A stretch of DNA of 24,895 nucleotides from an uncultured Gemmatimonadota bacterium (GCA_964626665.1 CAZVGK010000038.1:1-24895); one strand, 5' to 3'. Positions 1 through 18,135 are shown, counted from the first letter of the stretch. The notes: generated by a model not told the origin, from the sequence alone. A program made the numbers and translations.

Positions 1-126
1 GCCACCATCTTAGCATTTTCAATGTTTAATTTATTTCCAAAAGGTGGAATCCCTGATTATGGAGCGAGCAAGAAAAATGTTGGGAAATTTATGGAGAGTC
101 TGAATAAAAACCTAAACAAACTATGA
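1..126 (+). CDS. 3' end of a hypothetical CDS entering from the left edge
   Basis: Frame 1 is open from base 1 (ATILAFSMFNLFPKGGIPDYG...NKL) to TGA at 124-126. No recognisable motif. Confidence 0.4.
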   Translation, partial: ATILAFSMFNLFPKGGIPDYGASKKNVGKFMESLNKNLNKL

Positions 127-217
127 ATGACACAAAAGATCGAAAGACGCCAAACCGAAGAAAAGAAAACAGTTACGCATTGATAATAGTGAAGAAATAA
201 ATATCCGGGGGTGAACA

Positions 218-751
218 ATGAAGTGGATAGCAAAAAGGATCTTGCTGAGATCACAAGGCCATATGGACAGAGCATTGACTCAATTTGTAAGCCCATTCGT
301 TGAGAGAATTAGGCAAAAATATGGAATTACTGATTGGTATTGTAGCAGAAAAACTGACGAAGACCGGACTATGCCTTCTGTGAGGATTTACCTAAATGTC
401 GATGAGGCAATAGAGAACGAGTTATTATCTGAACTGGGTGAATTACTTAACAGGAAGAGAAGTGTAATTGGTTGGACAGGCCAATATAATGAGCCAGATC
501 CTACTATAGAACCTTCTAAACCCAATTTAAAGCGAATTCAAAGGGGTTGTGAAATTGCCTTAAAACTAATGATAGCTTATCCTGGTGCAAATAGGCACAA
601 TACCCGAGAATTTCTAGTTGATTTGAGACAAGAGGTAAATGCATTTCTATATTCCATGAATGGGGAGTATGATTGGGAGGCAATCCATTTTATAGCAAAC
701 AACTTAGGTTTAAGAGATGAATTCATTATTCGACTTGCATCAGTTCAATAG
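218..751 (+). CDS. Hypothetical protein resembling the lantibiotic dehydratase C-terminal / thiopeptide-type bacteriocin biosynthesis domain
   Basis: GGGGTGA SD before ATG. N-terminal pattern W...D..LTQFVSPFVE.I...GITDWYCSR..D....VRIYL and C-terminal IHFIANNLGL..E recall Lant_dehydr_C (W..FFxRY.D..HxRxR ... HM..NRLG..E). Recognised by eye only. Confidence 0.6.
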   Translation: MKWIAKRILLRSQGHMDRALTQFVSPFVERIRQKYGITDWYCSRKTDEDRTMPSVRIYLNVDEAIENELLSELGELLNRKRSVIGWTGQYNEPDPTIEPSKPNLKRIQRGCEIALKLMIAYPGANRHNTREFLVDLRQEVNAFLYSMNGEYDWEAIHFIANNLGLRDEFIIRLASVQ

Positions 752-786
752 TAACCGAGCGGACAAAAGGGAGTAGGGGACAAAAG

Positions 787-822
787 ACAAAACTTCCCAC
801 TTTGGGATATGGGAGGTTTTGT
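787..822. terminator. Stem-loop after the 218..751 gene (putative terminator or REP-like)
   Basis: ACAAAACTTCCCA (787-799) pairs with TGGGAGGTTTTGT (810-822), one G-U pair. Confidence 0.5.
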
Positions 823-932
823 AGGGGAATGTAATGAGAAATCATATGGCAAAGAAGAAAAAATCAGTTATATTGTGCTTTAGCAAAGAGGAGAGAGATT
901 TAAGCTCTAAAAGGCAGGAAGGGAGCAGTAGG

Positions 933-2363
933 ATGAAAAAATTATTGTCCCATATCATTATTGTTTGGTTGGGAATAGGCATACTCATTTGTTACTCCAA
1001 TCTTGAAGTTTGCCAAGCAAAAACGGGAGCTCTCGCTGAAACAAATCCCCTCGCATGTGCTCTTTTTTTCGCCAAGAGGATAGACTATCCTATGGATAAA
1101 GTCGATCAGTTGCTCGAAGTAGCCACCCGGTATGTCGAAGTTGGACAAAAGAAGAAAACCCTTGGGATACTGTCCATGACCCTTCAGGAAACTGAGGAGG
1201 TGTCCCCTTCAGCTTACTTGAGTTCTTCCCCATTTTGGAAAGCCTCACAACTGGCTGCTATAGCCGGGGGGTACGCTAAAGCCGGGCAAAAGGAGAAAGC
1301 TCTGAAGATATTGTCCGAGGCCCTTCGGCTGGTCAAAGAGTTGGAATATGCCTGTGATGAGCCCTACTTGAAGTCCAGGACATTGGCTGAAATAGCTGGA
1401 GGGTACGTGAAAACTGGAGAATACGAGCGCGCCTTTCAGATAGCCAAAACAATAGAGAAACCAGATAATGAAGCCAAAGCGTTGATTGAGATAGCCACCA
1501 GATATAATGAAATCGGACAAAAGGAAAAAACTTTGGAGATACTGTCAGAGGCTTTTTGGGTTGCCAAATCAATAGAAGCTACCTCAAGCATGGAAGCTCA
1601 ATCAGAAGTTACCAAATTGGTTGAGATAGCTACCACATACGATCGAATTGGAAAAGAGGGAAAAGCTTTGGAGATATTATCCACGGCCCTTCAGATTGCC
1701 AAAATGCAGGAGTCCACCACTGAGGATCGTTCTTACAAAGTCAGGACATTGACTGAGGTAGCCAGTGGTTATGCGGAAATCGGACAAAAGGAAAAAGCCT
1801 TAGAGATACTACCTGAGGCTCTTCAGGTTGCCAAAACGGTAGTTGTTGAGGGCGAGGAGATGTGGCTTCTGACTGGGAGTTTGAGTTGGCTTTTGATTGG
1901 AGAATCAGGACCCACTGCATTAGCCACTGTAGCTAGCAAGTATGCCGAAGTTGGAGAAGAGGAAAAAGCCCTAGAGATACTATCTGAGGCTCTTCAGGCG
2001 GTCAAAGAAATTGAGCATTCTGACAAACCTTCTTTCAGAGCCAAGGTATTAGCCGAGATAGCTGGCGGATATGTCCAAGCTGGACAAAAGAGGAAAGGCT
2101 TGGAGATATTGGCCTCGGCCCTTCTTCTTGCCAAATCGATCGAGGATCCCAGTATAAAAGACATGGTGTTATATTTCATTACTGAAAGATATGCAAAGGC
2201 TGGTCAATACCACCGTAGCCTCCAGATAGTCAAAAACATAGACGGTCCATATTACAAAACCAGGGCGTTGTTGGAGATTGCCGATGAGTATTCTAATTCC
2301 GCACAAAGGTTAGATAATCGAGCGAAGAAAATTTTGCACGAAATTATAACAGGAACTAAATGA
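933..2363 (+). CDS. Secreted TPR-like alpha-helical repeat protein
   Basis: ATG 933 (in frame with ORF 834) gives a signal-peptide-like MKKLLSHIIIVWLGIGILICY..CQA. About 8 repeats of L.EIA..Y...GQKEKALEILSEAL..AK.IE. Confidence 0.8.
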   Translation: MKKLLSHIIIVWLGIGILICYSNLEVCQAKTGALAETNPLACALFFAKRIDYPMDKVDQLLEVATRYVEVGQKKKTLGILSMTLQETEEVSPSAYLSSSPFWKASQLAAIAGGYAKAGQKEKALKILSEALRLVKELEYACDEPYLKSRTLAEIAGGYVKTGEYERAFQIAKTIEKPDNEAKALIEIATRYNEIGQKEKTLEILSEAFWVAKSIEATSSMEAQSEVTKLVEIATTYDRIGKEGKALEILSTALQIAKMQESTTEDRSYKVRTLTEVASGYAEIGQKEKALEILPEALQVAKTVVVEGEEMWLLTGSLSWLLIGESGPTALATVASKYAEVGEEEKALEILSEALQAVKEIEHSDKPSFRAKVLAEIAGGYVQAGQKRKGLEILASALLLAKSIEDPSIKDMVLYFITERYAKAGQYHRSLQIVKNIDGPYYKTRALLEIADEYSNSAQRLDNRAKKILHEIITGTK

Positions 2364-2426
2364 GAGAAAGATAGCCTTGCTCAAGTAATTCTGAGAAAAG
2401 ATCAGGTAGCTCCAAGACCACCCTAC

Positions 2427-2482
2427 AAAAGGCAAGGGGAAACCCTTGTTTTTTGTATCATTTGGGTTTGATTACATAAATC
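2427..2482 (+). repeat. Copy 1 of a triplicated promoter/palindrome site (core in inverted orientation)
   Basis: AAAAGGCAAGGGGAAACCCTTGTTTTTTGTATCATTTGGGTTTGATTACATAAATC; aligns with 3398-3456 and 5412-5469. Confidence 0.7.
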
Positions 2483-2808
2483 GGTTCTTCTCCATTTTAG
2501 TTGATGCAATTTCGTGTAACTTCCGAAGTAATCGTGGGTTGTATAATGATCTATCTCGCTTGCAATATGGGAGATTACAAAACCCTAAATTGCTAAGCCT
2601 GTATTATTTAGGCGGTTAGTATTCTAGTCATTTCTACAAATTCACTCGCTCTATGATTATGAAAAACAGGGAGTTTAGTAAACTCAAAATGGGAAAAGTT
2701 GCCATTTTGAAAATCCAGAATATGGATAACCTCTTAAAATTAGGTAACTTATACTATCAACTAAAATGGAGATGAACCCATAAATCCAATTATTTACTGG
2801 AGGTAACT

Positions 2809-3252
2809 ATGGAACCATCGCCCCAAAAGAGTGCATCCAAGTGGAGTAGAGCATCCAAGTGGAGTGAAGAGCACGGGGCACCTCTTGGGTGCGTGGGTTG
2901 TTTTACTGTCGTCTTCGTAATAGTAATAATTGGTGTTTTAATCTCTTATTTTTCGGGTGAGAATCCTCTCCAAAACTCGCTCAGAGCATCGGTGGAATTT
3001 ACGGGCACCCAGTTTATGATCACAAACAACGATGATTTTGACTGGTCAAATGTTACTTTCACAATAAATCCTGGTTATCTTGGAGGTGGTTTTAGTCTCT
3101 GGGTCTCAAGGGTCCGTTCGGGACAAACCTATAGTGTAGGAACAATGCAATTCGCAAAAGGGGATGGAACAAGGTTTAATCCCTTTACAACTAAACCTCA
3201 GGAGATCTCTATTTCGTGCGATGAAGGTTTTTGGGGAGGTGGTTGGAAATGA
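2809..3252 (+). CDS. Hypothetical single-pass membrane protein with extracytoplasmic beta-rich domain
   Basis: GGAGGT SD; hydrophobic segment GCVGCFTVVFVIVIIGVLISYF; N-terminal tandem ASKWSR/ASKWSE. Confidence 0.75.
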   Translation: MEPSPQKSASKWSRASKWSEEHGAPLGCVGCFTVVFVIVIIGVLISYFSGENPLQNSLRASVEFTGTQFMITNNDDFDWSNVTFTINPGYLGGGFSLWVSRVRSGQTYSVGTMQFAKGDGTRFNPFTTKPQEISISCDEGFWGGGWK

Positions 3253-3272
3253 TGAGAGTACTTAAAGTATAG

Positions 3273-3391
3273 GCCGATCACTTAGGACATAAGAATATCC
3301 AGAGCACGGCCATCTATGCTAAGATGACTAAGAGAAGAGAGAGGAGATCCTTAAGAGGATGGAAACCTCTCCAGTCATTGCCGAGATTTGA
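3273..3391 (+). pseudogene. C-terminal remnant of a tyrosine recombinase (XerC/FimB-like box II), frameshifted
   Basis: 3273-3329 translates ADHLGHKNIQSTAIYAKMT (LGH..I..T..Y with the catalytic Tyr at 3315-3317). In-frame TAG at 3270-3272. After a shift in the (GA)n run it reads EEILKRMETSPVIAEI* ending at 3391. Confidence 0.8.
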
Positions 3392-3397
3392 AAAACT

Positions 3398-3456
3398 AAA
3401 AGACAAGGGAAAAATCCTTGCCTTTTGTGGTGCTTTAGGTTTATAATCAAACCCAA
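3398..3456 (+). promoter_or_regulatory. Copy 2 of the triplicated site; sigma70-like promoter with a palindrome over the -10
   Basis: TTGCCT (3418-3423), 18-nt spacer, TATAAT (3442-3447). TTAGGTTT-ATAATC-AAACCCAA palindrome; CAAGG..CCTTG upstream. Confidence 0.7.
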
Positions 3457-3556
3457 CCCTCCCCGTTAGTTGTAAAATGATTCAACTTTACGAGAGGTAT
3501 TGCAAATTTGTCGGATATAAACGAGATGAGCTAAATAGGTCAATAATCCAGTAAAC

Positions 3557-4338
3557 GTTAGGCGTCATTATTGATAATAAGACTGTGAAAGAAGCTGCGG
3601 GCCTAGCCTTTTTGATGAAAGGAGGTGAGATCTATGTGGATAGTTACATCCAAACGATCGACGGCATTATTCATTAGTCTCGCTTTGATCTTTGTTCTTG
3701 GTGTGATTCCTTCGATAGCACAGCAGAAGACCAAGATTGCAGGGAAAATGACGGTTGCTTACACTCGACAAGAAACGATTGATATTGGTGACATTGAAGG
3801 GCACATCATTTCCCTGGGTGAATCTGAGGGGACTAATGTTAGTACCGGTAAGCATAAGTTCATGGATGGTGCCCAGGTTGTTAACATGTCATTTGGTGAT
3901 CTTGTTAAGGGAAACGGACCTCATCAAGGCTATCTAAAACTTACCAAAAAGGGCAATGCCGTCTTTTGCAAATGGGAAGGCAAAGTCACTACCAAAGGCA
4001 CCTCTATGCCGACATTTGAAGGTACCTTCTCTTATATAAAAGGGACTGGTAAGTTCGAAAACATCGAGGGGGATGGCACCTATAAGGGAAAGTATATTTC
4101 AAAGACGATATACACTGTGGAATGGAAAGGCCAATACTCCATCAAAAAGTGAGGAAATGGCCTCCTCGTTAGATCCCTTATAGGAGAAGTCTTTGCAGGC
4201 CCGCAGCTTGGCATATTACAAAATGCAGAGGAGGGTTTGTTGAAGGGTCGAAACAGCGCCTAACAAAAAATTAGTCCTCCACTTCGTTTCGCCAAAATCA
4301 GTCTTCCGCTCACTTCGTATAGCCCGAAACCGTTATAT
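3557..4338 (+). mobile_element. Integron-type gene cassette with a degenerate attC; no intI visible in the window
   Basis: Core site GTTAGGC at 3557-3563 is the exact complement of GCCTAAC at 4258-4264 after the gene. The attC-like stretch ends CACTTCGTATAGCCCGAAACC-GTTATAT (4332-4338, near GTTRRRY). Confidence 0.65.
3634..4152 (+). CDS. Hypothetical exported beta-barrel-like protein (cassette cargo)
   Basis: AAGGAGGTGA SD before ATG 3634 (in frame with ORF 3625); signal peptide ALFISLALIFVLGVIPSIA; GTF..I.GTGKF..I.G.G motif as in dirigent/allene-oxide-cyclase-like barrels (inference). Confidence 0.75.
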   Translation: MWIVTSKRSTALFISLALIFVLGVIPSIAQQKTKIAGKMTVAYTRQETIDIGDIEGHIISLGESEGTNVSTGKHKFMDGAQVVNMSFGDLVKGNGPHQGYLKLTKKGNAVFCKWEGKVTTKGTSMPTFEGTFSYIKGTGKFENIEGDGTYKGKYISKTIYTVEWKGQYSIKK

Positions 4339-4463
4339 TAAATCGCCACCAATTTGAGCCTGGTTGGAAAGCTGGTTTGTTGGGAGGGGTAAAAGATTTG
4401 GGTGCTAAATCTTATTTCAGACATACGAATATTAATGGGCCGGAAAAATTAAGGAGGACAGCG

Positions 4464-4880
4464 ATGAAAGTCGCATCGATTATGACCGAGAAAGTGTTCA
4501 AGGTAAGAATGGATGATTCTATCGGAACAATTCGTAATATCTTGGAGCACGTTGAGTTTCACCATCTTCTGGTTGTGAAAGGTAGAGAACTGGTTGGTAT
4601 CCTATCGGATCGGGATGTCTTAAAGGTACTCAGTCCATTTTTAGGCACGCTCTCTGAGGAGTCACGCGATATGACTCTTCTAACTAAGAAAATTCATCAG
4701 ATTATGACTCGAAGACCAATAACTGTGGACAAAGGCACCCACATAGAAATTGCCGCCAATCTCTTGTTGGAGAATAATATATCATGTCTTCCTGTGGTTT
4801 CACCTAAGGGTGAAATCGAGGGAATCGTAACGTTGAAAGATATTCTCAGATTTTACATTGAGGGGAATAAAGCTACCTGA
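4464..4880 (+). CDS. CBS-pair domain protein (AcuB-like)
   Basis: AAGGAGG SD before ATG 4464; two CBS motifs (HHLLVV..ELVGILSDRD; ISCLPVV..GEIEGIVTLKD). Confidence 0.9.
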   Translation: MKVASIMTEKVFKVRMDDSIGTIRNILEHVEFHHLLVVKGRELVGILSDRDVLKVLSPFLGTLSEESRDMTLLTKKIHQIMTRRPITVDKGTHIEIAANLLLENNISCLPVVSPKGEIEGIVTLKDILRFYIEGNKAT

Positions 4881-4881
4881 T

Positions 4882-4910
4882 TTGACAATCTCTCAAAATC
4901 TATCTAAAAT
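4882..4910 (+). promoter_or_regulatory. Near-consensus sigma70 promoter
   Basis: TTGACA (4882-4887), 17-nt spacer, TAAAAT (4905-4910). Confidence 0.7.
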
Positions 4911-4916
4911 TCAATT

Positions 4917-4995
4917 GCCGAGGGACGCGTCTCTGGCCAGGAGACCCCACTCTTGACCAACATAAAGCAGTTTAATGTTGAGGTGGGGATTTTTT
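4917..4995 (+). ncRNA. Candidate ~80-nt small RNA or attenuator leader
   Basis: Directly after the promoter: hairpin GCC-G-AGGGAC-GC-GTCTCT-GGC (4917-4937), then a long hairpin CCCCAC..CAACAT../..ATGTTG..GTGGGG (4945-4988) followed by a T6 run. Confidence 0.4.
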
Positions 4996-5197
4996 ATATC
5001 AAAAGCAAAAACTGCTGGACAAATGCCCAACGGTTTTGTAGTTTGATGTTAGCTTCGGTCTTATCGAGGATGTATCGCAGTATCCGATAACCAACTTACT
5101 CTCTCTCGCTTAAAAGGAATATCATTCTGGGTTGTGCGTCGGAGGACCACGATAGTTCACGAGGTATTTAAAATAAATACCACAGGAGGATGGTAAA

Positions 5198-5347
5198 TTG
5201 GCAAAAAGAAAGGGAGTCTATAGGGGCAAGAAACGAGGGAAGGAACTGAAACGTCAAGAAAAACAGGAAAAGAAAAGGCAGCGGCGCTTTGGTAAGGAGG
5301 ATACTCAGAAGGATACTGAAAGGACAGATGGAGAAGTGGGTGATTAG
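5198..5347 (+). CDS. Small Lys/Arg-rich protein (49 aa), not in the ORF track
   Basis: CAGGAGGA SD 7 nt before TTG; MAKRKGVYRGKKRGKELKRQEKQEKKRQRRFGKEDTQKDTERTDGEVGD*. Resembles small basic proteins seen next to RRM/cold-shock genes (recollection). Confidence 0.7.
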   Translation: MAKRKGVYRGKKRGKELKRQEKQEKKRQRRFGKEDTQKDTERTDGEVGD

Positions 5348-5411
5348 GGGAAGAACAGGAGAATTATGAGAGGATGATGGGAGAGGTGTTTTGAGGAAGA
5401 TTTAAAAGATC

Positions 5412-5469
5412 AAAAGGCAAGAAAAAAAACCTTGCTTTTTGTAGTTTTTAGGTTTATAATTAAACCCAA
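5412..5469 (+). promoter_or_regulatory. Copy 3 of the triplicated site; likely promoter of the RRM gene
   Basis: TTGCTT (5432-5437), 17-nt spacer, TATAAT (5455-5460); palindrome GGTTTA-TAAT-TAAACC. Confidence 0.7.
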
Positions 5470-5655
5470 GTTATTCCCATTGATAATAAAACAACTCAAC
5501 TAGGAGGGAAAATCAAGAGAATTTTGACGGAAAAGGCTAAGGATCCCCTTTTTTTGTTTGAGCTTCACCCATAGTCGTGCATAGACTAACTTGTTTGGTT
5601 GTTTTAAGTTAGGCGAATTTCTGGTATAAACATTCAAGATAAAAGGGAGGTCAGA

Positions 5656-5946
5656 ATGAATCTCTATGTAGGTAATTTGTCCCACGAGGTCACCGAAGAG
5701 GATTTGCAAAAGGCTTTTGAGGCCTTCGGGCAGGTCACATCCGCCAAAATCATTACGGACAAGTTCAGTGGCCAATCAAGAGGGTTCGGATTCGTGGAGA
5801 TGCCTGCTAAAGCTGAAGCGCAGTCTGCAATCGACGGTTTGAATGGGAAAGACTTGAAAGGGCAATCGCTTAACGTCGGTGAGGCTCGCCCCCGCCCCGA
5901 AGGCCGACGAGGGGGAGGAAGGCGAGATAGTGGGTGGCGCTATTAG
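5656..5946 (+). CDS. RRM-domain RNA-binding protein (Rbp family)
   Basis: RNP2 LYVGNL, RNP1 RGFGFVEM, Gly/Arg-rich tail; GGGAGG SD. Confidence 0.97.
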   Translation: MNLYVGNLSHEVTEEDLQKAFEAFGQVTSAKIITDKFSGQSRGFGFVEMPAKAEAQSAIDGLNGKDLKGQSLNVGEARPRPEGRRGGGRRDSGWRY

Positions 5947-6062
5947 TAGTGAGCGGCACTCGGGTAAATAGGGGACACTTTCCACATTTTGGTAGGTAGC
6001 AAGGGACTATCGGGTACTACAGGATTTCTCAACAAAAATATATCAAGTGTTTCCGCAATAGC

Positions 6063-6095
6063 AACCTCCCGCAAGTTTGAAACTTGTGGGAGGTT
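6063..6095. repeat. 15-bp stem hairpin (REP-like or bidirectional terminator) between convergent genes
   Basis: AACCTCCCGCAAGTT-TGA-AACTTGTGGGAGGTT. Confidence 0.6.
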
Positions 6096-6289
6096 TAAAC
6101 TCTGACATTGCGGAACTGACGGTTAAGTTCAGTAGCATCCCTCAGAGCTCTTCTGTAATGGCGTATGAGGCGGGAGAGTCTGGGATTAAGAGTCACACAA
6201 ATCGTTTCCATCTTGTTAGAACAGTTTCTTCAGAGGTAGCCAAGTATGCTCCTCGCAGAAAAGAGGCTTTTACTGGCTAATTTGATTTT

Positions 6290-6502
6290 TTACTCCACCA
6301 TCACGGCGGTGCCGTAGGCTAAGAGCTCGGCGGCACCTCCCATAATGGCTGAGGTGGTGAACCTGAGGCAGACCACTGCATTGGCTCCTATCTTCTCCGC
6401 CTGTTCGGCCATTCTGTCTAAGGATTGTTCCCTGGACTCAGCCAGCATCTTGGTATATTCCTCTATCTCCCCGCCGACGATGTCCTTCAAGCCAGCTATT
6501 AT
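6290..6502 (-). pseudogene. ybjQ: 5'-truncated YbjQ/UPF0145 family protein
   Basis: IIAGLKDIVGGEIEEYTKMLAESREQSLDRM...GANAVVCLRF...AYGTAV is the C-terminal part of the family. The frame upstream reaches the cupin stop within 12 codons, with no ATG/GTG and no N-terminal TT...G...RA segment. Confidence 0.75.
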
Positions 6503-6896: not shown

Positions 6897-8499
6897 GAAG
6901 TCCCTCCTTTACCAGGGCCACAGGGATGGTGCCGAAGCTGAGAAGTTGATTGTGAAACTCCTTGAGTTCAAATCCCTTGCCCTTTGCTGTTTGGAACTCC
7001 TTTTTTAGGTCCATAATCTGACGTTTTCCCACCAGGTAGCTCATCGGCTGTGTAGGTGTCGCACAATACCTCTTTACCTCCCTCTCCGCATTTGTCCTCT
7101 CCAGTTTGGCCTTCTCCGTCAGGAAGCCAATTGCCTGTTCGTAGCTCCATCCGCGGGTGTGTAGGCCCACATCGATGAGCACCCTGGCGGCCCTCCACAA
7201 CTGATCCTTGAGCTGCATTAGCCTCACCCGGGGGTCGGTATAGAAGCCCTGATCATACATCAGCTCCTCGCAGTAGAGGGCCCACCCCTCGGCAAATACG
7301 CTGGTGAAGAATGTCCTCCGCACCTTGGATTGGACCCTATTGGCATGGACTAACTGGAGGTGATGGCCAGGATAGGCCTCATGGAGGGCGGTGAGGACCA
7401 TCCCAAACCTGTTGTGGCCACGGAGTTGCTTTTCTTTCTTCTCTGGAGGAAGGGACTCATCAACTGGAGTGACATAGAAAAAGCCGTTCTGTTCCTTCTC
7501 AAAAGGGGCAGGGGGCATATAGGCAGCATAGGGGATGGTGGGTCGTTCAAAGACTGGTGTGGGAATAATTTCCAGTTTCTCCCCCGGTGGGATGGTAACC
7601 AAATCCTTCTGGAGCACGAAATTGCGGGCCTCTTCCATCTTCTTCCGGTAGGCATCCATTACCTCTGCGGGTTGTGGATGGTCCTGCTTTAGCATCTCCA
7701 CTATCTCCATCCAAGTCTGCAGCGGATCTATCTGTTTGGCTAACTTTTGCATCTCCTCTGCGGTTTTGGCCAAGGCTTCCTCTCCCATCTCCCAGAGGTC
7801 CTGGGAATCGTAAGGGAGATGATGATGCACCTTGAGCATATAGTTAAAGAGATCCTCCCCGTAGGCGAACCCGCGCTTCGGAAAGCCCTTGAGGATGAAG
7901 TCCAGATAATCCTGAAAGGCGTTAAGTGCCTTTTGGCTTGCCTGTTCAAGCTCCTTGCTGAGTGAGGGGATCTTCTGTGCCAATTGGGGGACAACCGAGC
8001 CGAAGAAGATCTGGCCACTTTGACAGACCTCAGTGGCCACTTGGGCAAAGACAGGGGGGACCTTCTTGAGGTTTGCGTGGCCCTCCTTGAGAAGTTGCGG
8101 GATCTGGCGAAGCCGGGAAAGGATGGACTCGGCCCTCTGAGCAAGGGGGGCAAACTCCCGTATCGAGAGGAGGAAAATTCCTTCCAGCCCAATCATAGGA
8201 TAGATTCCTGGATCGGCCTGATAGGGGTTGAACTCTTCAAACTCGGCCGTCTGGGCGGAGAGTTGACTTATAAGGATGGAGCGATTGAGCTTCTCATCCG
8301 AAGAGAGCTTCTCCCCAGGGATGGACTCCAGCATGCTGATGAACTCCTTCTCTCGCTGATTCATCTCCTCCAGCTTCTCCTTAGAATAGTCACCCAAGAG
8401 GTGATCATACTGATGGATGCCCTGTCCAGTGGCCCCCACGGGATGGCTTTCCCATTCAAAATTTAATATCTCATCGGTCAGGTCATTAAAGTTTTCCAT
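6880..8499 (-). CDS. DUF885 family protein (putative metallopeptidase-like)
   Basis: HEAYPGHHLQ, FAEGWALYCE, WRAARVLIDVGLH and PTQPMSYLVG motifs. Start at 8499 inferred from AAGGAG upstream (ORF extends to 8523). Confidence 0.9.
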   Translation of the reverse strand: MENFNDLTDEILNFEWESHPVGATGQGIHQYDHLLGDYSKEKLEEMNQREKEFISMLESIPGEKLSSDEKLNRSILISQLSAQTAEFEEFNPYQADPGIYPMIGLEGIFLLSIREFAPLAQRAESILSRLRQIPQLLKEGHANLKKVPPVFAQVATEVCQSGQIFFGSVVPQLAQKIPSLSKELEQASQKALNAFQDYLDFILKGFPKRGFAYGEDLFNYMLKVHHHLPYDSQDLWEMGEEALAKTAEEMQKLAKQIDPLQTWMEIVEMLKQDHPQPAEVMDAYRKKMEEARNFVLQKDLVTIPPGEKLEIIPTPVFERPTIPYAAYMPPAPFEKEQNGFFYVTPVDESLPPEKKEKQLRGHNRFGMVLTALHEAYPGHHLQLVHANRVQSKVRRTFFTSVFAEGWALYCEELMYDQGFYTDPRVRLMQLKDQLWRAARVLIDVGLHTRGWSYEQAIGFLTEKAKLERTNAEREVKRYCATPTQPMSYLVGKRQIMDLKKEFQTAKGKGFELKEFHNQLLSFGTIPVALVKEGLLGDKK

Positions 8500-8523
8500 C
8501 TCTTCTCTCCTTGATTTTATCAT

Positions 8524-8724
8524 TTTGTGCCGACAGAGCCTCTGCCCTGACGGGGCAGGTTGGATTTTGTTCTGCTCCGCTCAAGCTCGCCACGGATGTT
8601 ATCCTCCACAGCACCTATAACAAAGCAAGAAAGTCACTGGGTTGTAGGAATTTTCCTCAATGCCTTTGCTCAGCCCGGACACCTTCAGTCTATCCCTTTG
8701 TGGATGATAACATCCACAAAGAGC
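8524..8724. repeat. REP-like palindromes A (8524-8553) and B (8696-8724), with inverted copies at 10373-10440
   Basis: TTTGTGCCGACAGAGCCTCTGCCCTGACGG and CTTTGTGGATGATAACATCCACAAAGAGC. Confidence 0.75.
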
Positions 8725-8793
8725 GGAGACTTTGTCCATTCGGCTTGAAAACGTCAATTGATAAATAAAAATTGCTCATTAACAATTTAGGAC

Positions 8794-9759
8794 TTACACT
8801 AGGAGTTTCCCTCCCTCCATAATTACCTTCCCATCAATCCTTAAGGTGGGCCTGAGGAGGATGCCATCCAAGTGGCTGGCTACCGAGACATTTCCCCCCA
8901 TTGAGGCATTGTCCCCCATTGCAATGTGCACCGTTCCCAGCACTTTCTCATCCTCTAAGACATTGCCGATTAGTCTGGCCTTATCATTGGTGCCTATCCC
9001 CAGCTCGGCTATGTTCCGACCTGGTCTTCCATGCGGCTCGACCAATTCCCGCAGGTAATTGGCCCATTTCCTCCCTTTGATCTCCTCCACAAAGCCCCCT
9101 CTAACGGTGAGCTCAATGGTCTCGTCCATCACCCCGGTGTCCGCGATGGCCCCATCGATGACGATCTTTCCCTCTGCCGTCCCCTCTATGGGGGCGATAT
9201 AGCCCTCTCCAGCAGGAAGGTTGCTGAAATCTCCGGGGTTAAAGACTAAGCCGGTATCGGCATGGCCATTCCTCCCCTGCAAGGACATAGTGATCTGGGT
9301 GCCAGCAGGGGTGGTCACCTCGGCCCTTTTCCCCTCGCTTAGTATCTGGGCCACCTTTCTGCTCCTCTTAGCTATCTGCTCATAGTCGGCATTAAGGGCC
9401 CGGCGCATCGTCTCCTCCCTTATCCCCGGAAGGGTGGCACACCTGGCCCCAGCCTTGGTGGCCTCCCGCCGGGCGTCGGTGTGGGAGAGGGACATCGAGG
9501 TGGGGATGATGAGGACATCGGCCTCCTTCATAAATTTGGCCAGAGAAGGTGGCGGTTCCTCCCCATGGCTTTTCCGAGGGACTATTTCAGTAAGCATCGC
9601 CTCGGCCCCCAAATCCTTAGCTGCCTCCCAGAAGAGGTAGCCGATCTTTCTTAAGGGTTCATCCGTGATCACCAGCACGGTCTCCCCCCTTCGCACCCGC
9701 AGACAGTTGTTTACTGCCGTCTGGGCGGCCTTTCTTAACTCATCCATCTTACCCTCCAT
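8794..9759 (-). CDS. Aminopeptidase, peptidase M29 (thermophilic metalloprotease/AmpS-like)
   Basis: NLPAGEGYIAP, IAELGIGTN, EDEKVLGTVHIAMG and HLDG motifs. Confidence 0.9.
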   Translation of the reverse strand: MEGKMDELRKAAQTAVNNCLRVRRGETVLVITDEPLRKIGYLFWEAAKDLGAEAMLTEIVPRKSHGEEPPPSLAKFMKEADVLIIPTSMSLSHTDARREATKAGARCATLPGIREETMRRALNADYEQIAKRSRKVAQILSEGKRAEVTTPAGTQITMSLQGRNGHADTGLVFNPGDFSNLPAGEGYIAPIEGTAEGKIVIDGAIADTGVMDETIELTVRGGFVEEIKGRKWANYLRELVEPHGRPGRNIAELGIGTNDKARLIGNVLEDEKVLGTVHIAMGDNASMGGNVSVASHLDGILLRPTLRIDGKVIMEGGKLLV

Positions 9760-10372: not shown

Positions 10373-10440
10373 GCTCTTTGTGGATGTTATTATCCACAAA
10401 GGATCTTCATCCGTCAGGGCGGGAGCCCTGACGGCACAAA
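10373..10440. repeat. REP-like palindromes B (10373-10402) and A (10411-10440)
   Basis: GCTCTTTGTGGATGTTATTATCCACAAAGG and CCGTCAGGGCGGGAGCCCTGACGGCACAAA; near reverse complements of 8696-8724 and 8524-8553. Confidence 0.75.
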
Positions 10441-12667: not shown

Positions 12668-14350
12668 GTGATGAAGACGAAACTCATAATCTTGAGCCTT
12701 CTTCTGTTTGTGGGGTGTGGTTCAACCTCCCAATTGATAGTGAAGAAAGAGGTTGGGGTATCAACAGTGAGTCCTCAGGCCTACGAGCACTTCACCCAGG
12801 GTCTGATCTATCAATTACGAGGTAAGGCCGACTCTGCCCTGGTGGAATACCAGCGGGCCCTGAGGTGGGATCCCCAGTCGGTGGAATTGAGGTTCTCCTT
12901 GGCCCAGCTTTACTACCGCCAAGGGAATTTTGCCCACTCATCCCAGATCTTGCAGGAGGCGGTGCAGCTTACTCCGCAGAGGGAGGGCCTCCATAAACTC
13001 TTGGCCGATTCCTACAGGCATCAGGCCATGGACTCCCTGGCCATCAAGGAGTATAGGGAGGTTGTCAGGATTAACCCTAGAGAGAAAGGGGCTTACTATT
13101 ATCTGGCCTTTCTCTCCCAAAAAGTAGGGGATGAACCTTCGGCCATCAGGTATCTAAATAAGCTAACTAAGCTTATGCCCAGCTCCCCTGATGTCTTCAA
13201 CCAGTTGGCCGGCCTCTTAGCCAAGGAGGGAAAATATGATGAGGCGGAGAAGAAATACAAAAAGGCCCTGGATATAAAGCCCAACCTCTCCAAGGCCAGA
13301 TATGGACTGGGGATGATCTACGAGAAAAAGGGGAAGGTTGACGAGGCAACTGCTCAGTATGAGGAGGTGCTGAAGCTGAGGCCGCGGGATTTGAACCTCA
13401 GACACCATCTGATAAACCTCTATTTGCGGGGGAAAAAGTTCGATCAGGCCATCCATCATTATGAGGAAATCCTCAAATCCCACCCCGATGACCAAGTTGC
13501 TCGGAAGAAGTTAGGACTTCTCCTCTATTCCTTGAAGAGATTTGATGAGGCAGAGAAGGTGTTCAAATCATCTGGCCAGTTGGTGCACTCCCGGCCCGAC
13601 CTCTCCTTCTTCTTGGGTAGGGTTTACTTGGAGAAGAAGGAGTATGAGTCCGCCATTCGGATGTTTCGCCAATCCATCAGCTTGGACGATACCGTTCCCG
13701 ATGCCTGGATAAACTTGGGTTTGGTATACTTGAGGAAGAGCAAGCCAAGGAAAGCGGTAGAGGTCTTTAAGAAAGCAACCCAGAGGATAAAGGGTAACTC
13801 AGACCTCTTCTACTTTTTGGGCATCTCCTTAAACCAGGCAAAGCTTTATACCCAGGCCATACCCGCCTTTACCTCTTCCCTTTCCCTAAGCCCCAAAAAC
13901 GAGAGGGCCATTTTTGGCTTAGGGGTAGCCTATGAGCGGAGTGGGGAGTTTGCCTCAGCGGAGAAGACCTTTCAGGAGGTGATAGCCATCAATCCGCAGA
14001 ACAGCTCTGCCCTCAACTATTTGGGTTATATGTATGCCGACAAGGGGATAAAGCTTAAGGACTCCCTTGAATTGATAAAAAAGGCTCTCAGGATAGATCC
14101 GGGGAATGGGGCCTATCTGGACAGCTATGGTTGGCTTCTCTTCAGATTGGGGAGGTTGCCGGAGGCAGAGAAGAGGATAAAGGAAGCCTTGGAGAAGATA
14201 GGGGATGATGCCACCATCTATGATCATCTGGGCCAGATATACTATCGAGAGGGGAGATATGAAGAGGCCAAAACCCAATGGAAGAAAGCCCTCCAGTTGG
14301 ATCCCCAAAATGGGGAGATAAAGGCGCGGCTCCAGAAATTAGGGGGATAG
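12668..14350 (+). CDS. TPR-repeat lipoprotein
   Basis: Lipobox-like LFVGC; many TPRs; C-terminal ALNYLGYMYAD...YLDSYGWLLF...IYDHLG signature. Confidence 0.92.
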   Translation: MMKTKLIILSLLLFVGCGSTSQLIVKKEVGVSTVSPQAYEHFTQGLIYQLRGKADSALVEYQRALRWDPQSVELRFSLAQLYYRQGNFAHSSQILQEAVQLTPQREGLHKLLADSYRHQAMDSLAIKEYREVVRINPREKGAYYYLAFLSQKVGDEPSAIRYLNKLTKLMPSSPDVFNQLAGLLAKEGKYDEAEKKYKKALDIKPNLSKARYGLGMIYEKKGKVDEATAQYEEVLKLRPRDLNLRHHLINLYLRGKKFDQAIHHYEEILKSHPDDQVARKKLGLLLYSLKRFDEAEKVFKSSGQLVHSRPDLSFFLGRVYLEKKEYESAIRMFRQSISLDDTVPDAWINLGLVYLRKSKPRKAVEVFKKATQRIKGNSDLFYFLGISLNQAKLYTQAIPAFTSSLSLSPKNERAIFGLGVAYERSGEFASAEKTFQEVIAINPQNSSALNYLGYMYADKGIKLKDSLELIKKALRIDPGNGAYLDSYGWLLFRLGRLPEAEKRIKEALEKIGDDATIYDHLGQIYYREGRYEEAKTQWKKALQLDPQNGEIKARLQKLGG

Positions 14351-16033
14351 GTGGTTGTGGTTAGGTTTTCCTCCTTTATTCTCCTGGCTCTTCTTTTTTT
14401 TTCCTGTGCCCGGCAGGAACCGCCCAGAGGTGGGCCGGAGGATACTACCTTCCCGCAGATCCTCGATCACCTACCTCGTTCCTTAGCCACCAAGGTTTCC
14501 CTCCAAAGAAGGCTGAAGGTCTTCTTCAGCGAGCAAATGGATCGCAAGTCGGTGGAGGAGTCGATATTTATCTCCCCGCCTCTGTCCCATAAGGCTTGCT
14601 GGAAAGGTCAGCTCTTAACCCTTACTCCTGCGACTAATCTTTCTCCCAATTGCACCTATGTGGTCACCCTGGGAACTGGGTGTCGGGATCTGCACGGGAA
14701 TCCCCTTTCCCAGGCCTACACATTTGCCTTTTCCACTGGGGATTCCATCGATCAGGGCTCCATTGACGGAAGGACCTTTTTCCAAGGGGAACCCATAGAG
14801 GGAGCAAGCATCTGGGCCTATCGTTCTCTGGGTGGTGCGAATCCCCTTGCTGCTCCGCCAGATTATGTTACCCAATCTGGAATTGACGGCCACTTCCAAT
14901 TTGGCTATCTGGCCGCGGGGAACTATCTGATCTTTGCCCTCTTAGACAAGAACAGGGATGGTAAGTGGGACCCAGCCTCTGAACCCTTGGCGGTTCCGCC
15001 TAAGAGGGTGGACCTGACAACGGGGATTGGTTCTGTTAAAGGGCTTTACCTAAGCCTGGCCTTGCGAGATACCACTCCGCCGAATCTCATCTCCTTGCAA
15101 CCGATGGATAGGGGAAAACTTCGGCTGGTCTTCGATCACCCTATGGACTCCCTGCAGATCTTCAACCCCTCCCACTACTTCCTGAGCTTCGCCGGGGGGA
15201 AACTCCCCATCAAGGGGATCTATCCGGATTATGGGAAAATGGACAGGGTTTACCTTTGGACAGATAGGCAGGAGGAAGGTAAGAGATACACCTTGAGGAT
15301 GAAGGGGATAGGAGATAGGTGGGGGAATGCACTGAGCCTTTCATCCGTTGAGGTGAATTTTTCCGGCTCTTCCCTCCCCGATACGGTGCCTCCAAGCCTT
15401 CAATGGATGTCCCCACCAGATGGGGCCAAAGCTGTCCCCCTGGGGACAAGGGTTAAGCTCTTCTTCTCTGAGCCTATGGATCAACCATCGGTAGAGAAGG
15501 GTTTTGGCTTATTGGATATGGAAGGTGATACTATCTCTGGGAATTTTAACTGGCCGTTTCCCAACCTCTGTTGCTATATTCCCGAGGAGAGGCTTCCTGG
15601 ATCATCATCTCTTCAGATTATTTTAGAGGGAGATAGGGCCAAGGATCTGGCCGGAAATAGGCTGAGCGACTCCACCCTTGCCTACGGTTTTTCCACCCTG
15701 AATCCAGATACCCTCGGCTCCCTCTCCGGGAAGATAACCTTAGCGGATACAACCCAAAAAGGGATGGTTGTCCTCTCCTGTAAGTGCGTGGATAGTCAAA
15801 TAGGCTATGTAAAGCCACTGAAAGAACCAGGTCCTTATACCTTAGAGAGCCTAATTTGTGGCCGCTATATCTTAAGGGCCTGGCTGGACAGAAACTTCAA
15901 CCACCGTTTTGATCAAGGGAAGCTTTCTCCCTTTTTCCCAGCAGAGTTCTTCACGGTCTACCCGGATACGGTGCGGGTGCGGGCCAGGTGGGAAACGGAG
16001 GGGATAGATATGGAGCTGGGGGTTAAAAGGTAA
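14351..16033 (+). CDS. Ig-like (Big_5) domain lipoprotein
   Basis: LFFSCA..PP.GGP.D..P N-terminus; repeated FSE.MD..SVE..I and DL.GN.L...Y.F.FST motifs; starts immediately after the TPR gene. Confidence 0.88.
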   Translation: MVVVRFSSFILLALLFFSCARQEPPRGGPEDTTFPQILDHLPRSLATKVSLQRRLKVFFSEQMDRKSVEESIFISPPLSHKACWKGQLLTLTPATNLSPNCTYVVTLGTGCRDLHGNPLSQAYTFAFSTGDSIDQGSIDGRTFFQGEPIEGASIWAYRSLGGANPLAAPPDYVTQSGIDGHFQFGYLAAGNYLIFALLDKNRDGKWDPASEPLAVPPKRVDLTTGIGSVKGLYLSLALRDTTPPNLISLQPMDRGKLRLVFDHPMDSLQIFNPSHYFLSFAGGKLPIKGIYPDYGKMDRVYLWTDRQEEGKRYTLRMKGIGDRWGNALSLSSVEVNFSGSSLPDTVPPSLQWMSPPDGAKAVPLGTRVKLFFSEPMDQPSVEKGFGLLDMEGDTISGNFNWPFPNLCCYIPEERLPGSSSLQIILEGDRAKDLAGNRLSDSTLAYGFSTLNPDTLGSLSGKITLADTTQKGMVVLSCKCVDSQIGYVKPLKEPGPYTLESLICGRYILRAWLDRNFNHRFDQGKLSPFFPAEFFTVYPDTVRVRARWETEGIDMELGVKR

Positions 16034-16176: not shown

Positions 16177-16216
16177 TTCTACCGCACTTTAGTGCGGGTT
16201 CAGGGCCTTTAGGCCC
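16177..16216. repeat. 40-bp double-hairpin repeat, copy 1 (copy 2 at 17961-18000)
   Basis: TTCTACCGCACTTTAGTGCGGGTTCAGGGCCTTTAGGCCC; 38/40 identical to copy 2. Confidence 0.85.
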
Positions 16217-16371
16217 TTTTTATTGAGGGCTAAGGTCCTCTTACCCCCCGTTTCAGCGGGGGTAGAAGTGTAGGATTCGGGGATAACGAGCCACGCGCTA
16301 CGAGTGACGATAGGAGATGGGTTTTTGGTTGCGGCTTCGCTGCGTTCATCTGTGGTTTGGGTATACTTTGT

Positions 16372-17960: not shown

Positions 17961-18000
17961 TTCTACCGCACTTTAGTGCGGGTTAAGGGCCTTCAGGCCC
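17961..18000. repeat. 40-bp double-hairpin repeat, copy 2
   Basis: TTCTACCGCACTTTAGTGCGGGTTAAGGGCCTTCAGGCCC. Confidence 0.85.
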
Positions 18001-18135
18001 CTTGGGTTTGAGTCCAGTGAACGGGCTAAAGCTCCGTTCTCACAACTTGTCAAGCCCGGTTGCTAAAAAAAATAGGAAGTGTCCCTATTCTATTTCCCAT
18101 AGTGAGGGGAGAAACCCAAAGCAATCTAAGTTCAG

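Follow-up and report, generated by a model that had tools for sequence, protein, structure and literature searches.

The subject of this analysis is a perfect 13-nt inverted repeat in the genome of an uncultured Gemmatimonadota bacterium (assembly G000, 3.17 Mb in 63 contigs), lying in a window that comprises the whole of contig C38 (24,895 bp). Its left arm, TTGGGTTTGATTA at 2462-2474 on the plus strand, is the exact reverse complement of its right arm, TAATCAAACCCAA at 3444-3456, and a first-pass annotation of the window had read the pair as a possible fim-like invertible promoter switch. We put at roughly 70% the probability of a different reading, in which the arms are not the sites of an invertible segment: each lies in the palindrome of one of two copies of a reused module of terminator and promoter, and in the first copy that palindrome was flipped in place and then struck by a miniature inverted-repeat transposable element (MITE). 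According to this reading the module sits behind small tyrosine recombinase genes of the Xer-like kind, most of which survive only as 3' stumps, and would have spread together with those stumps by duplication and rearrangement. In copy 1 the 23-25-bp quasi-palindrome (arms plus loop) would have been swapped in place for its reverse complement, most likely by replication template switching between the arms, an exchange that would have turned TATAAT into TGATTA, presumably silencing the promoter, and created the perfect 13-nt match between copies 1 and 2. Later, copy 1 received a 296-bp ISL3-like MITE in its loop and right arm, with duplication of 8 bp, and the 970 bp between the arms would be a fixed stretch made up of the MITE, an open reading frame of 147 aa (ORF147) and a recombinase stump.

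A reused module and the recombinase stumps it follows

The features on which the argument depends are these.

2425-2455: terminator hairpin of copy 1, CAAGGG-GAAA-CCCTTG and a T run, homologous to the terminators of copies 2 and 3 (two-strand terminator scan)
2461-2482: left part of the copy 1 quasi-palindrome, namely left arm TTTGGGTTT, loop and the right arm's first 5 nt; includes 2462-2474
2475-2482 and 2779-2786: target-site duplication CATAAATC (8 bp)
2483-2778, plus strand: MITE, 296 bp, with 22-bp terminal inverted repeats GGYTCWTCTCCATTTTAGTTGA
2779-2789: remainder of the copy 1 right arm with the right target duplication (2779-2786)
2809-3252, plus strand: ORF147, 147 aa, predicted membrane-anchored
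3258-3391, plus strand: C-terminal stump of a small tyrosine recombinase gene, ADHLGHKNIQSTAIYAK..., frameshift, ...KRMETSPVIAEI, stop at 3389-3391
3398-3427: terminator hairpin of copy 2, 11 pairs (terminator scan)
3418-3447, plus strand: predicted promoter of copy 2, TTGCCT-18-TATAAT, 10/12 consensus matches
3435-3456: quasi-palindrome of copy 2, TTAGGTTT-ATAATC-AAACCCAA; includes the right arm, 3444-3456
3457-3633, plus strand: leader of copy 2, partly common to copies 3 and 4 (nhmmer)
5411-5522, plus strand: module copy 3, with terminator, TTGCTT-17-TATAAT (5432-5460), quasi-palindrome (5448-5469) and the leader of a gene for an RRM RNA-binding protein

The module shared by these copies is about 115 bp long and combines four elements: a rho-independent, palindromic terminator (AAAAGGCAAGG-loop-CCTTGCCTTTT), a predicted sigma-70-type promoter (TTGCNT, 17-18 nt, TATAAT), a weak quasi-palindrome lying across the -10 box (8-9-nt arms, 6-nt loop), and a leader of about 60 nt. 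A profile (nhmmer) built from copies 2, 3 and 4 (3393-3510, 5405-5522 and the end of contig C34) also matches C1:218514 (E 3.8e-7), C14:9939 (E 7.6e-7) and copy 1 itself at 2426-2469 (E 0.0029), and the sister genome G001 carries a copy at 86% identity. The order TTGCNT-17/18-TATAAT is intact in five of the eight module copies read (copies 2, 3 and 4, G001 and C14) and lost in three (copy 1, the copy on C24 and C1:218514). Given that TATAAT is invariant in the five promoter-bearing copies, that their palindrome arms vary, and that the palindromes fold weakly as DNA (-0.1 to -3.6 kcal/mol; -0.1 in copy 4 and -2.2 in copy 2), the conserved function of the module looks like that of a promoter and not of a stable hairpin. 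Sigma-70-type -35 and -10 hexamers at a spacing of 17-18 nt are kept in these five copies, and the palindrome is possibly a dyad operator at the predicted promoter. One of the closest published parallels may be the reused or putative mobile promoters of PMC3575422, described in the accessible part of that paper as highly similar promoter regions before unrelated genes of one genome. Highly similar promoter regions before unrelated genes are common to both; unlike those cases, the promoter here travels with a terminator and the 3' stump of a recombinase gene, which suggests a specific vehicle.

The stump upstream of copy 2 amounts to about 40 codons, is frameshifted, has a stop codon immediately upstream, and lacks the parts that carry the catalytic Arg, Lys and HxxR. 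It is 87.6% identical to C24:52868-53050 and 82% identical to the 3' end of an intact gene (C34:27445-28014), and stumps are also found upstream of the copy 4, C24 and G001 modules. No such module follows the intact gene on C34, whose product of 189 aa consists of the catalytic domain only. Among family models XerA (NF040815) scores best with this protein, at 137.7 bits (cut-off 220). With the FimB/E-type models it scores 67.1 bits for NF007371, with which it aligns over its full length (cut-off 222; E 1.4e-18), and 54.4 bits for NF007370 (cut-off 221). A score of 67.1 against a cut-off of 222 means that the paralogue is not a FimB/FimE member. The large and widespread family around the 189-aa protein comprises 233 proteins at E <= 1e-10 among 336 candidates, mostly of 179-212 aa, and close relatives occur in 3 of the 401 genomes searched, G000 counted. 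In G209, from another phylum, the two closest recombinase relatives yielded one 17-nt inverted pair next to one of the genes, its arms 469 nt apart, a single instance from which nothing general follows.

Comparison with the sister genome indicates how the present arrangement arose. Window positions 3260-5001 are 91.7% identical to 7792-9548 of G001 contig C130 (L009), with homology starting exactly at the stump. Upstream of the stump, G001 has glyoxalase-like and outer-membrane-like genes, and the same arrangement is kept on G000 contig C24; stump and terminator have thus been duplicated in G000 (C24 and C38), and the upstream TPR-repeat gene, copy 1 and ORF147 were joined to the stump by rearrangement in that genome. 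When the locus of TPR gene, copy 1 and ORF147 was sought in G001 and G002, only weak TPR similarity was found, in G002.

That the quasi-palindrome is instead the attachment (att) crossover core of integrative elements or of an integron-like platform, with copies 1-3 as junctions of integrated units and the inverted copy 1 as a by-product, we consider unlikely. Such a view would accommodate the constant position of the module after recombinase 3' ends (copies 2 and 4, C24, G001), the presence of stump and terminator at two G000 loci relative to G001, as at insertion ends, and the fading of C24's similarity to copy 2 at the left arm. It would equally suit the low GC of positions 1-6000 (37-48%, against 47-60% in the rest of the window) with their small unrelated genes, and a decayed AAACGAG-TTAGGC-type site in the leader, of the kind found after the XerA-like recombinase of C52. 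However, copies 2, 3 and 4 resemble each other on both sides of the palindrome, on the right for about 60 nt, leaving the palindrome no sharp boundary; the element that stays invariant in promoter-bearing copies is TATAAT and not the arms; and neither the absence of a module after the intact 189-aa gene nor the rarity of its close relatives (3/401 genomes) is easily reconciled with a working crossover site. The cut-off of the integron integrase model TIGR02249 (265) is reached by neither the C52 protein (230.6) nor the 189-aa protein (89.1). The order of recombinase, outward promoter, site-like sequence ending in a GTTAGGC-type word and small unrelated genes is nevertheless like that of an integron platform; unlike an integron, no integrase passes the cut-off and the recombinase is co-directional with the genes. 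Isolated GTTAGGC / GCCTAAC words occur at 3560 and 4262.

The probably flipped core of copy 1

The 13-nt repeat by itself is not significant, since 41.5% of shuffled windows (n=200) contain at least one perfect inverted pair of at least 13 nt within 1200 nt (mean 0.755). The window holds nine start-position pairs of this kind, of which five represent one MITE terminal repeat, one the terminators of copies 1 and 2 (2425/3416) and one the pair under discussion; the 13-nt inverted match of the two terminators follows from the fact that palindromic direct repeats also read inverted. With up to 3 mismatches the 13-mer matches the window 10 times against 9.03 expected, a count reached in 44 of 100 shuffles, and two of its four occurrences in the whole genome are at unrelated places. 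What is significant is the position of the arms: each sits 6-7 nt past a homologous palindromic terminator, and the inverted match extends further, growing with the MITE removed to 20/22 positions (copy 2) or 22/23 (the G001 copy). A third copy of the arm (5457-5469) has 1 mismatch and is oriented as in copy 2. TATAAT stands at 3442-3447 in copy 2 and at 5455-5460 in copy 3, and the equivalent hexamer of copy 1 (2469-2474) is TGATTA, so that the first-pass annotation was right both about the complementarity of the two arms and about TATAAT being absent from copy 1 but present in copies 2 and 3.

Copy 1 resembles most of the copies compared better when its core is reverse-complemented. Once the MITE and one copy of its duplication are taken out, 22 of 23 positions match the reverse complement of the G001 copy, with a 2-nt indel in addition, and comparison with each of the other copies gave the following scores.

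Copy 1 and the G001 copy: inverted 18, direct 9
Copy 1 and copy 2: inverted 15, direct 10
Copy 1 and copy 3: inverted 14, direct 14
Copy 1 and copy 4: inverted 9, direct 7

The terminator of copy 1 and its 6-nt GTA-type spacer are direct, as in every other copy. When direct copies were mutated at 20-50% divergence (3000 runs per level), no more than 0.5% of the runs gave an inverted score of 18 and no more than 0.17% a score difference of 9, which makes ordinary drift of a quasi-palindrome, the fallback that the earlier annotation had allowed for, an unlikely source of the pattern. Its other suggestion, a flipped core or micro-inversion, is supported: the flanks are direct and the core is inverted (18 vs 9; p <= 0.005). 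It is quite improbable, consequently, that copy 1 is just a diverged direct copy whose 13-nt match has no history. Shuffled windows do contain a 13-nt inverted pair within 1.2 kb in 41.5% of cases, and arms that are nearly palindromic let direct copies match partly in reverse; copy 3 scores equally in both orientations. Against this stands a 22/23 inverted match with the G001 copy that includes the asymmetries of the arms and the loop.

The pattern fits a discrete micro-inversion of arms and loop in copy 1. Inverting the segment between copies 1 and 2 could not by itself change the orientation of a core with respect to the flank outside it, so on geometric grounds the flip would be a separate event. 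Template switching between short inverted repeats, to judge from the accessible text of PMC8604942 and PMC5453318, leads to homogenisation of the arms and inversion of the spacer. Copy 1 is like the template-switch products treated there and in the corresponding part of PMC8794818 in that a short quasi-palindrome has been reverse-complemented in place, leaving the flanks untouched and a cluster of apparent substitutions; it is unlike them in its extra 2-nt indel, in the loss of a -10 box, and in that the mechanism is deduced from the product alone.

The MITE and the stretch between the arms

The first-pass annotation had correctly listed the gene at 2809, the recombinase remnant and the -35 box of copy 2 between the arms but had missed the MITE at 2483-2778. 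The family to which this element belongs has seven copies in G000, all of 296-297 bp and with no shared open reading frame; the other six are at C1:213038-213333, C25:17288-17583, C11:23675-23971, C8:17474-17769, C28:29545-29840 and C3:58529-58825. They fall into three subfamilies (64-70% identity between, 89-94% within), all 14 of their 22-nt terminal repeats lie within 3 mismatches of the GGCTCTTCTCCATTTTAGTTGA form, and the flanking duplications are perfect (8/8) in two of the seven copies and have one mismatch (7/8) in another two. An empty site is present in a related strain, where a contig of run X21 (depth 19, about 92% identical) lacks precisely 2475-2778, 8 nt at the joint matching either side; the insertion of the MITE into copy 1 is thereby established, and 304 of the approximately 970 nt between the arms are an insertion that this strain lacks. 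The element was not found in 40 other genomes searched, and the ISL3 transposase domain (PF01610) had 0 matches in G000, the control being positive in 5 of 14 genomes. Published ISL3 elements, according to the accessible part of PMC6305408, have ends starting GGCTCTTC and 8-bp duplications. The family is like ISL3 elements and their MITEs in its GGCTCTTC ends, its AT-rich 8-bp duplication, its many short copies without a transposase and its empty site; it is unlike them in that G000 has no PF01610 transposase and that subfamilies only 64-70% alike are nonetheless fixed at 296-297 bp, with some compensatory pairs. Judged from eight terminal bases and the length of the duplication, its parentage would be ISL3-like. 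The consensus folds into a terminal stem plus nine pairs with compensatory change, drawn from three independent lineages only, and the family may have a role beyond that of a dead MITE, such as carrying a structured RNA or a cargo that binds protein. The strongest inverted repeat of the window, a 35-nt pair at 2471-2505 / 2756-2790 that was considered as an inverton, proved to be the MITE ends plus the duplication.

The orientation of the stretch was examined in the Logan contigs of 4 of the 24 runs found. Contigs of X16 (about 150x) and X17 cover 1500-3301 and 3296-4529, each with 0 differences, and bridge both arms (2462-2474 and 3444-3456) in the reference orientation; their break at about 3296-3301 coincides with the repeated stump. 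X20 covers 21 of 30 bins and X21 28 of 30, uncovered parts carrying no information. No strand-change joint at either arm appears in the contigs of any of the four runs, and the joints listed are the MITE-free allele, a poorly supported skip from 3331 to 5597 (side 25) and a low-depth join of 5379 to 3400. The last, in an X17 contig of depth 2.7 with 32 unmatched letters between the two ends, might represent an altered copy 3, a duplication in tandem or a circular form of the copy 2-copy 3 unit. A metagenome scan for the left junction of copy 1 returned one contig, 100% identical to the window, and no new allele. Around the G001 orthologue of the copy 2 promoter there is no inverted partner within 1.5 kb, so the repeat pair is not conserved around the orthologous promoter, and the recombinase gene inside the segment is a stump. 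A second candidate inverton, the 24-nt pair 3171-3194 / 3466-3489 (83%), is of borderline length, has its left arm in ORF147 (absent from G001), is bridged at both arms in the reference orientation, and is probably due to chance.

Two further readings give the small recombinases a more active part. Very improbably, the quasi-palindrome would be the crossover core of a widespread family of recombinases of about 190 aa with a catalytic domain only, and the modules would be the junctions of a gene-capture or flip-flop system that carries promoters. Copies 1 and 2 would then bound a 1-kb switch of the Hin-like sort, with its own recombinase inside, which loss of the gene and arrival of the MITE had only recently disabled. 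The least probable reading is the simpler one of an active or recently disabled invertible segment, in which copies 1 and 2 are inverse core sites of the small tyrosine recombinase family. Flipping 2475-3443 would part the -35 of copy 2 from its -10 and turn the downstream 175-aa gene off, in a layout that would be Hin-like since the recombinase gene lies inside. Its appeal comes from perfect 13-nt arms in opposite orientation and with an asymmetric loop, from a -35 box inside the segment and a -10 box straddling the right arm, from a recombinase stump inside that points at the right arm, and from an intact 189-aa paralogue of an invertase-sized family that aligns in full with NF007371. These attractions are outweighed: the contigs of 4/4 runs and the single metagenome contig contain no inverted junction; the stump lacks most catalytic residues and its paralogue scores 67 bits with NF007371 vs 138 with XerA; the G001 copy 2 promoter has no inverted partner and 304 of the intervening bases are a strain-specific MITE; a two-site inversion cannot explain a copy 1 core flipped relative to its own terminator; and the arms are a weak dyad, copy 4 being hardly palindromic (-0.1 kcal/mol). 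A fim-like or Hin-like switch thus fails on the local enzyme, on family membership and on conservation of the pair, its second orientation is unseen in contigs, and the promoter switch first proposed for this locus is not supported.

Two known switches offer a comparison. Like fimS with FimB/FimE in Escherichia coli, the locus combines short inverted repeats with a promoter that lies at one of the repeats, and the gene upstream, for a small tyrosine recombinase, points towards that promoter. The fimS segment is about 300 bp long and contains the promoter only; unlike it, the stretch here is of about 970 bp, holds an open reading frame and a MITE, has a stump for an enzyme, is seen in one orientation, and has in G001 a promoter without a partner. 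Likewise, in the Hin / H-segment system of Salmonella the segment is about 1 kb long, encodes its recombinase and has at one end a promoter that reads outwards. Hin itself belongs to the serine recombinases and works at 26-bp hix sites together with an enhancer; the present locus has a tyrosine-recombinase stump and no sign of inversion.

Several considerations count against a flipped module copy followed by a fixed stretch of DNA. The intact 189-aa paralogue on C34 could act in trans, and 179-212 aa is a usual size for DNA invertases. Since contigs lose rare variants, an inversion in a minority of cells could go unseen, and the 19 runs in which 0.98-0.99 of the sampled words occur are not independent and may be where this DNA came from. 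Copy 3 scores equally in both orientations (14 vs 14), and the drift simulation comprised substitutions only. Promoter activity, moreover, is predicted from a consensus match, and the homology of C24 to copy 2 fades at the palindrome's left arm, as it might at a crossover site too.

Neighbouring genes, further repeats and wider meaning

The genes next to the module copies are as follows.

834-2363, plus strand: gene for a TPR-repeat protein of 509 aa, with copy 1 after its 3' end (Pfam TPR_12, E 8.1e-11)
3625-4152, plus strand: gene downstream of copy 2, 175 aa, signal-peptide-like N terminus, conserved in G001
5656-5946: RRM RNA-binding protein gene, downstream of copy 3

The TPR gene contains seven internal 105-nt repeats. 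ORF147 has no Pfam or NCBIfam match and no paralogue in G000 by blastn, and it was not found in G001 or G002. A CBS-domain gene (4377-4880) has an 81%-identical paralogue at C17:30136-30585, and the pieces flanking it (4350-4403 and 4945-5000) recur elsewhere, so that the low-GC stretch shares small units with other loci. Further along, two adjacent same-strand open reading frames of exactly 560 aa each (12668-14350 and 14351-16033) are probably tandem paralogues. An Rfam scan of window positions 1-6400 at E <= 1 gave 0 matches.

Other recombinase-associated sequences were met in the same genome. A further promoter-like module that has been reused, CCCTTGACACAAAGGG..TATA(C/T)T with its -35 inside a palindrome, sits before the intact 189-aa recombinase gene in G000 (C34:28015-28239 = L029 2068-2292) and precedes an outer-membrane-like gene in G001 (L009 7078-7130). 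Six C-terminal stumps of a different, integron-integrase-like recombinase (...IYTHVLNRGG.GV.SP.D) lie at C59:406-591, C47:3254-3400, C5:14492-14590, C4:42389-42529, C2:187376-187465 and C13:47011-47085, most of them followed by palindromes of the TTATATGG..CCATATAA kind. A motif search located the decayed site in the copy 2 leader at 3490-3531; its family consists of sites with two or three hairpins (GGTATATCYGCA..TGCGGATATA) and a final AAACGAGTTAGGC, with members in G000 at C52:347, C57:68, C19:4443, C25:14048, C41:21452 and C14:24051. The C52 site comes just after the gene for a 363-aa XerA-like recombinase, which scores 238.6 with the XerA model (above its cut-off of 220) and 230.6 with the integron integrase model (below 265).

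Several repeats are unconnected with the module. Positions 1-55 of the window are the end of a repeat (...GGTGGAATCCCTG) that also occurs at contig ends of C41, C1, C55 and C40 and internally at C3:67370, C24:53170 and C47:4936; an insertion sequence at which the assembly breaks is the probable explanation, and derivatives of about 125 bp bounded by CAGGGATTCC...GGAATCCCTG are present in C24 and C47. Near-perfect palindromes of 26-30 nt (CTTTGTGGATG..CATCCACAAAG) at 8695-8724 and 10373-10402, 97% complementary to each other, bracket an M29-peptidase-like gene and the next open reading frame and look like operator or terminator sites. A double-hairpin repeat resembling repetitive extragenic palindromic (REP) elements (TTCTACCGCACTTTAGTGCGG + GGGCCTTTAGGCCC) is found at 16177-16219 and 17961-18003 (93% alike) and at C4:22560-22600, with a TTGGGTTTGA-like word after the copies at 18002 and on C4. 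The hairpin repeat CCTCCCGCAAGTTTGAAACTTGTGGGAGG at 6057-6108 has 84-91% matches on at least 8 other contigs.

As found, the case matters little in itself. Its value is that of a worked example, in which direct copies of palindromic modules mimic the repeats of an invertible switch and in which a small in-place flip would have deleted a -10 box before a MITE landed at the same spot. It thus serves as a warning for inverton searches based on inverted repeats in metagenome-assembled genomes. Were the minority reading true, in which the small recombinases cross over at the quasi-palindrome, the module would provide the first candidate target site for this recombinase family.

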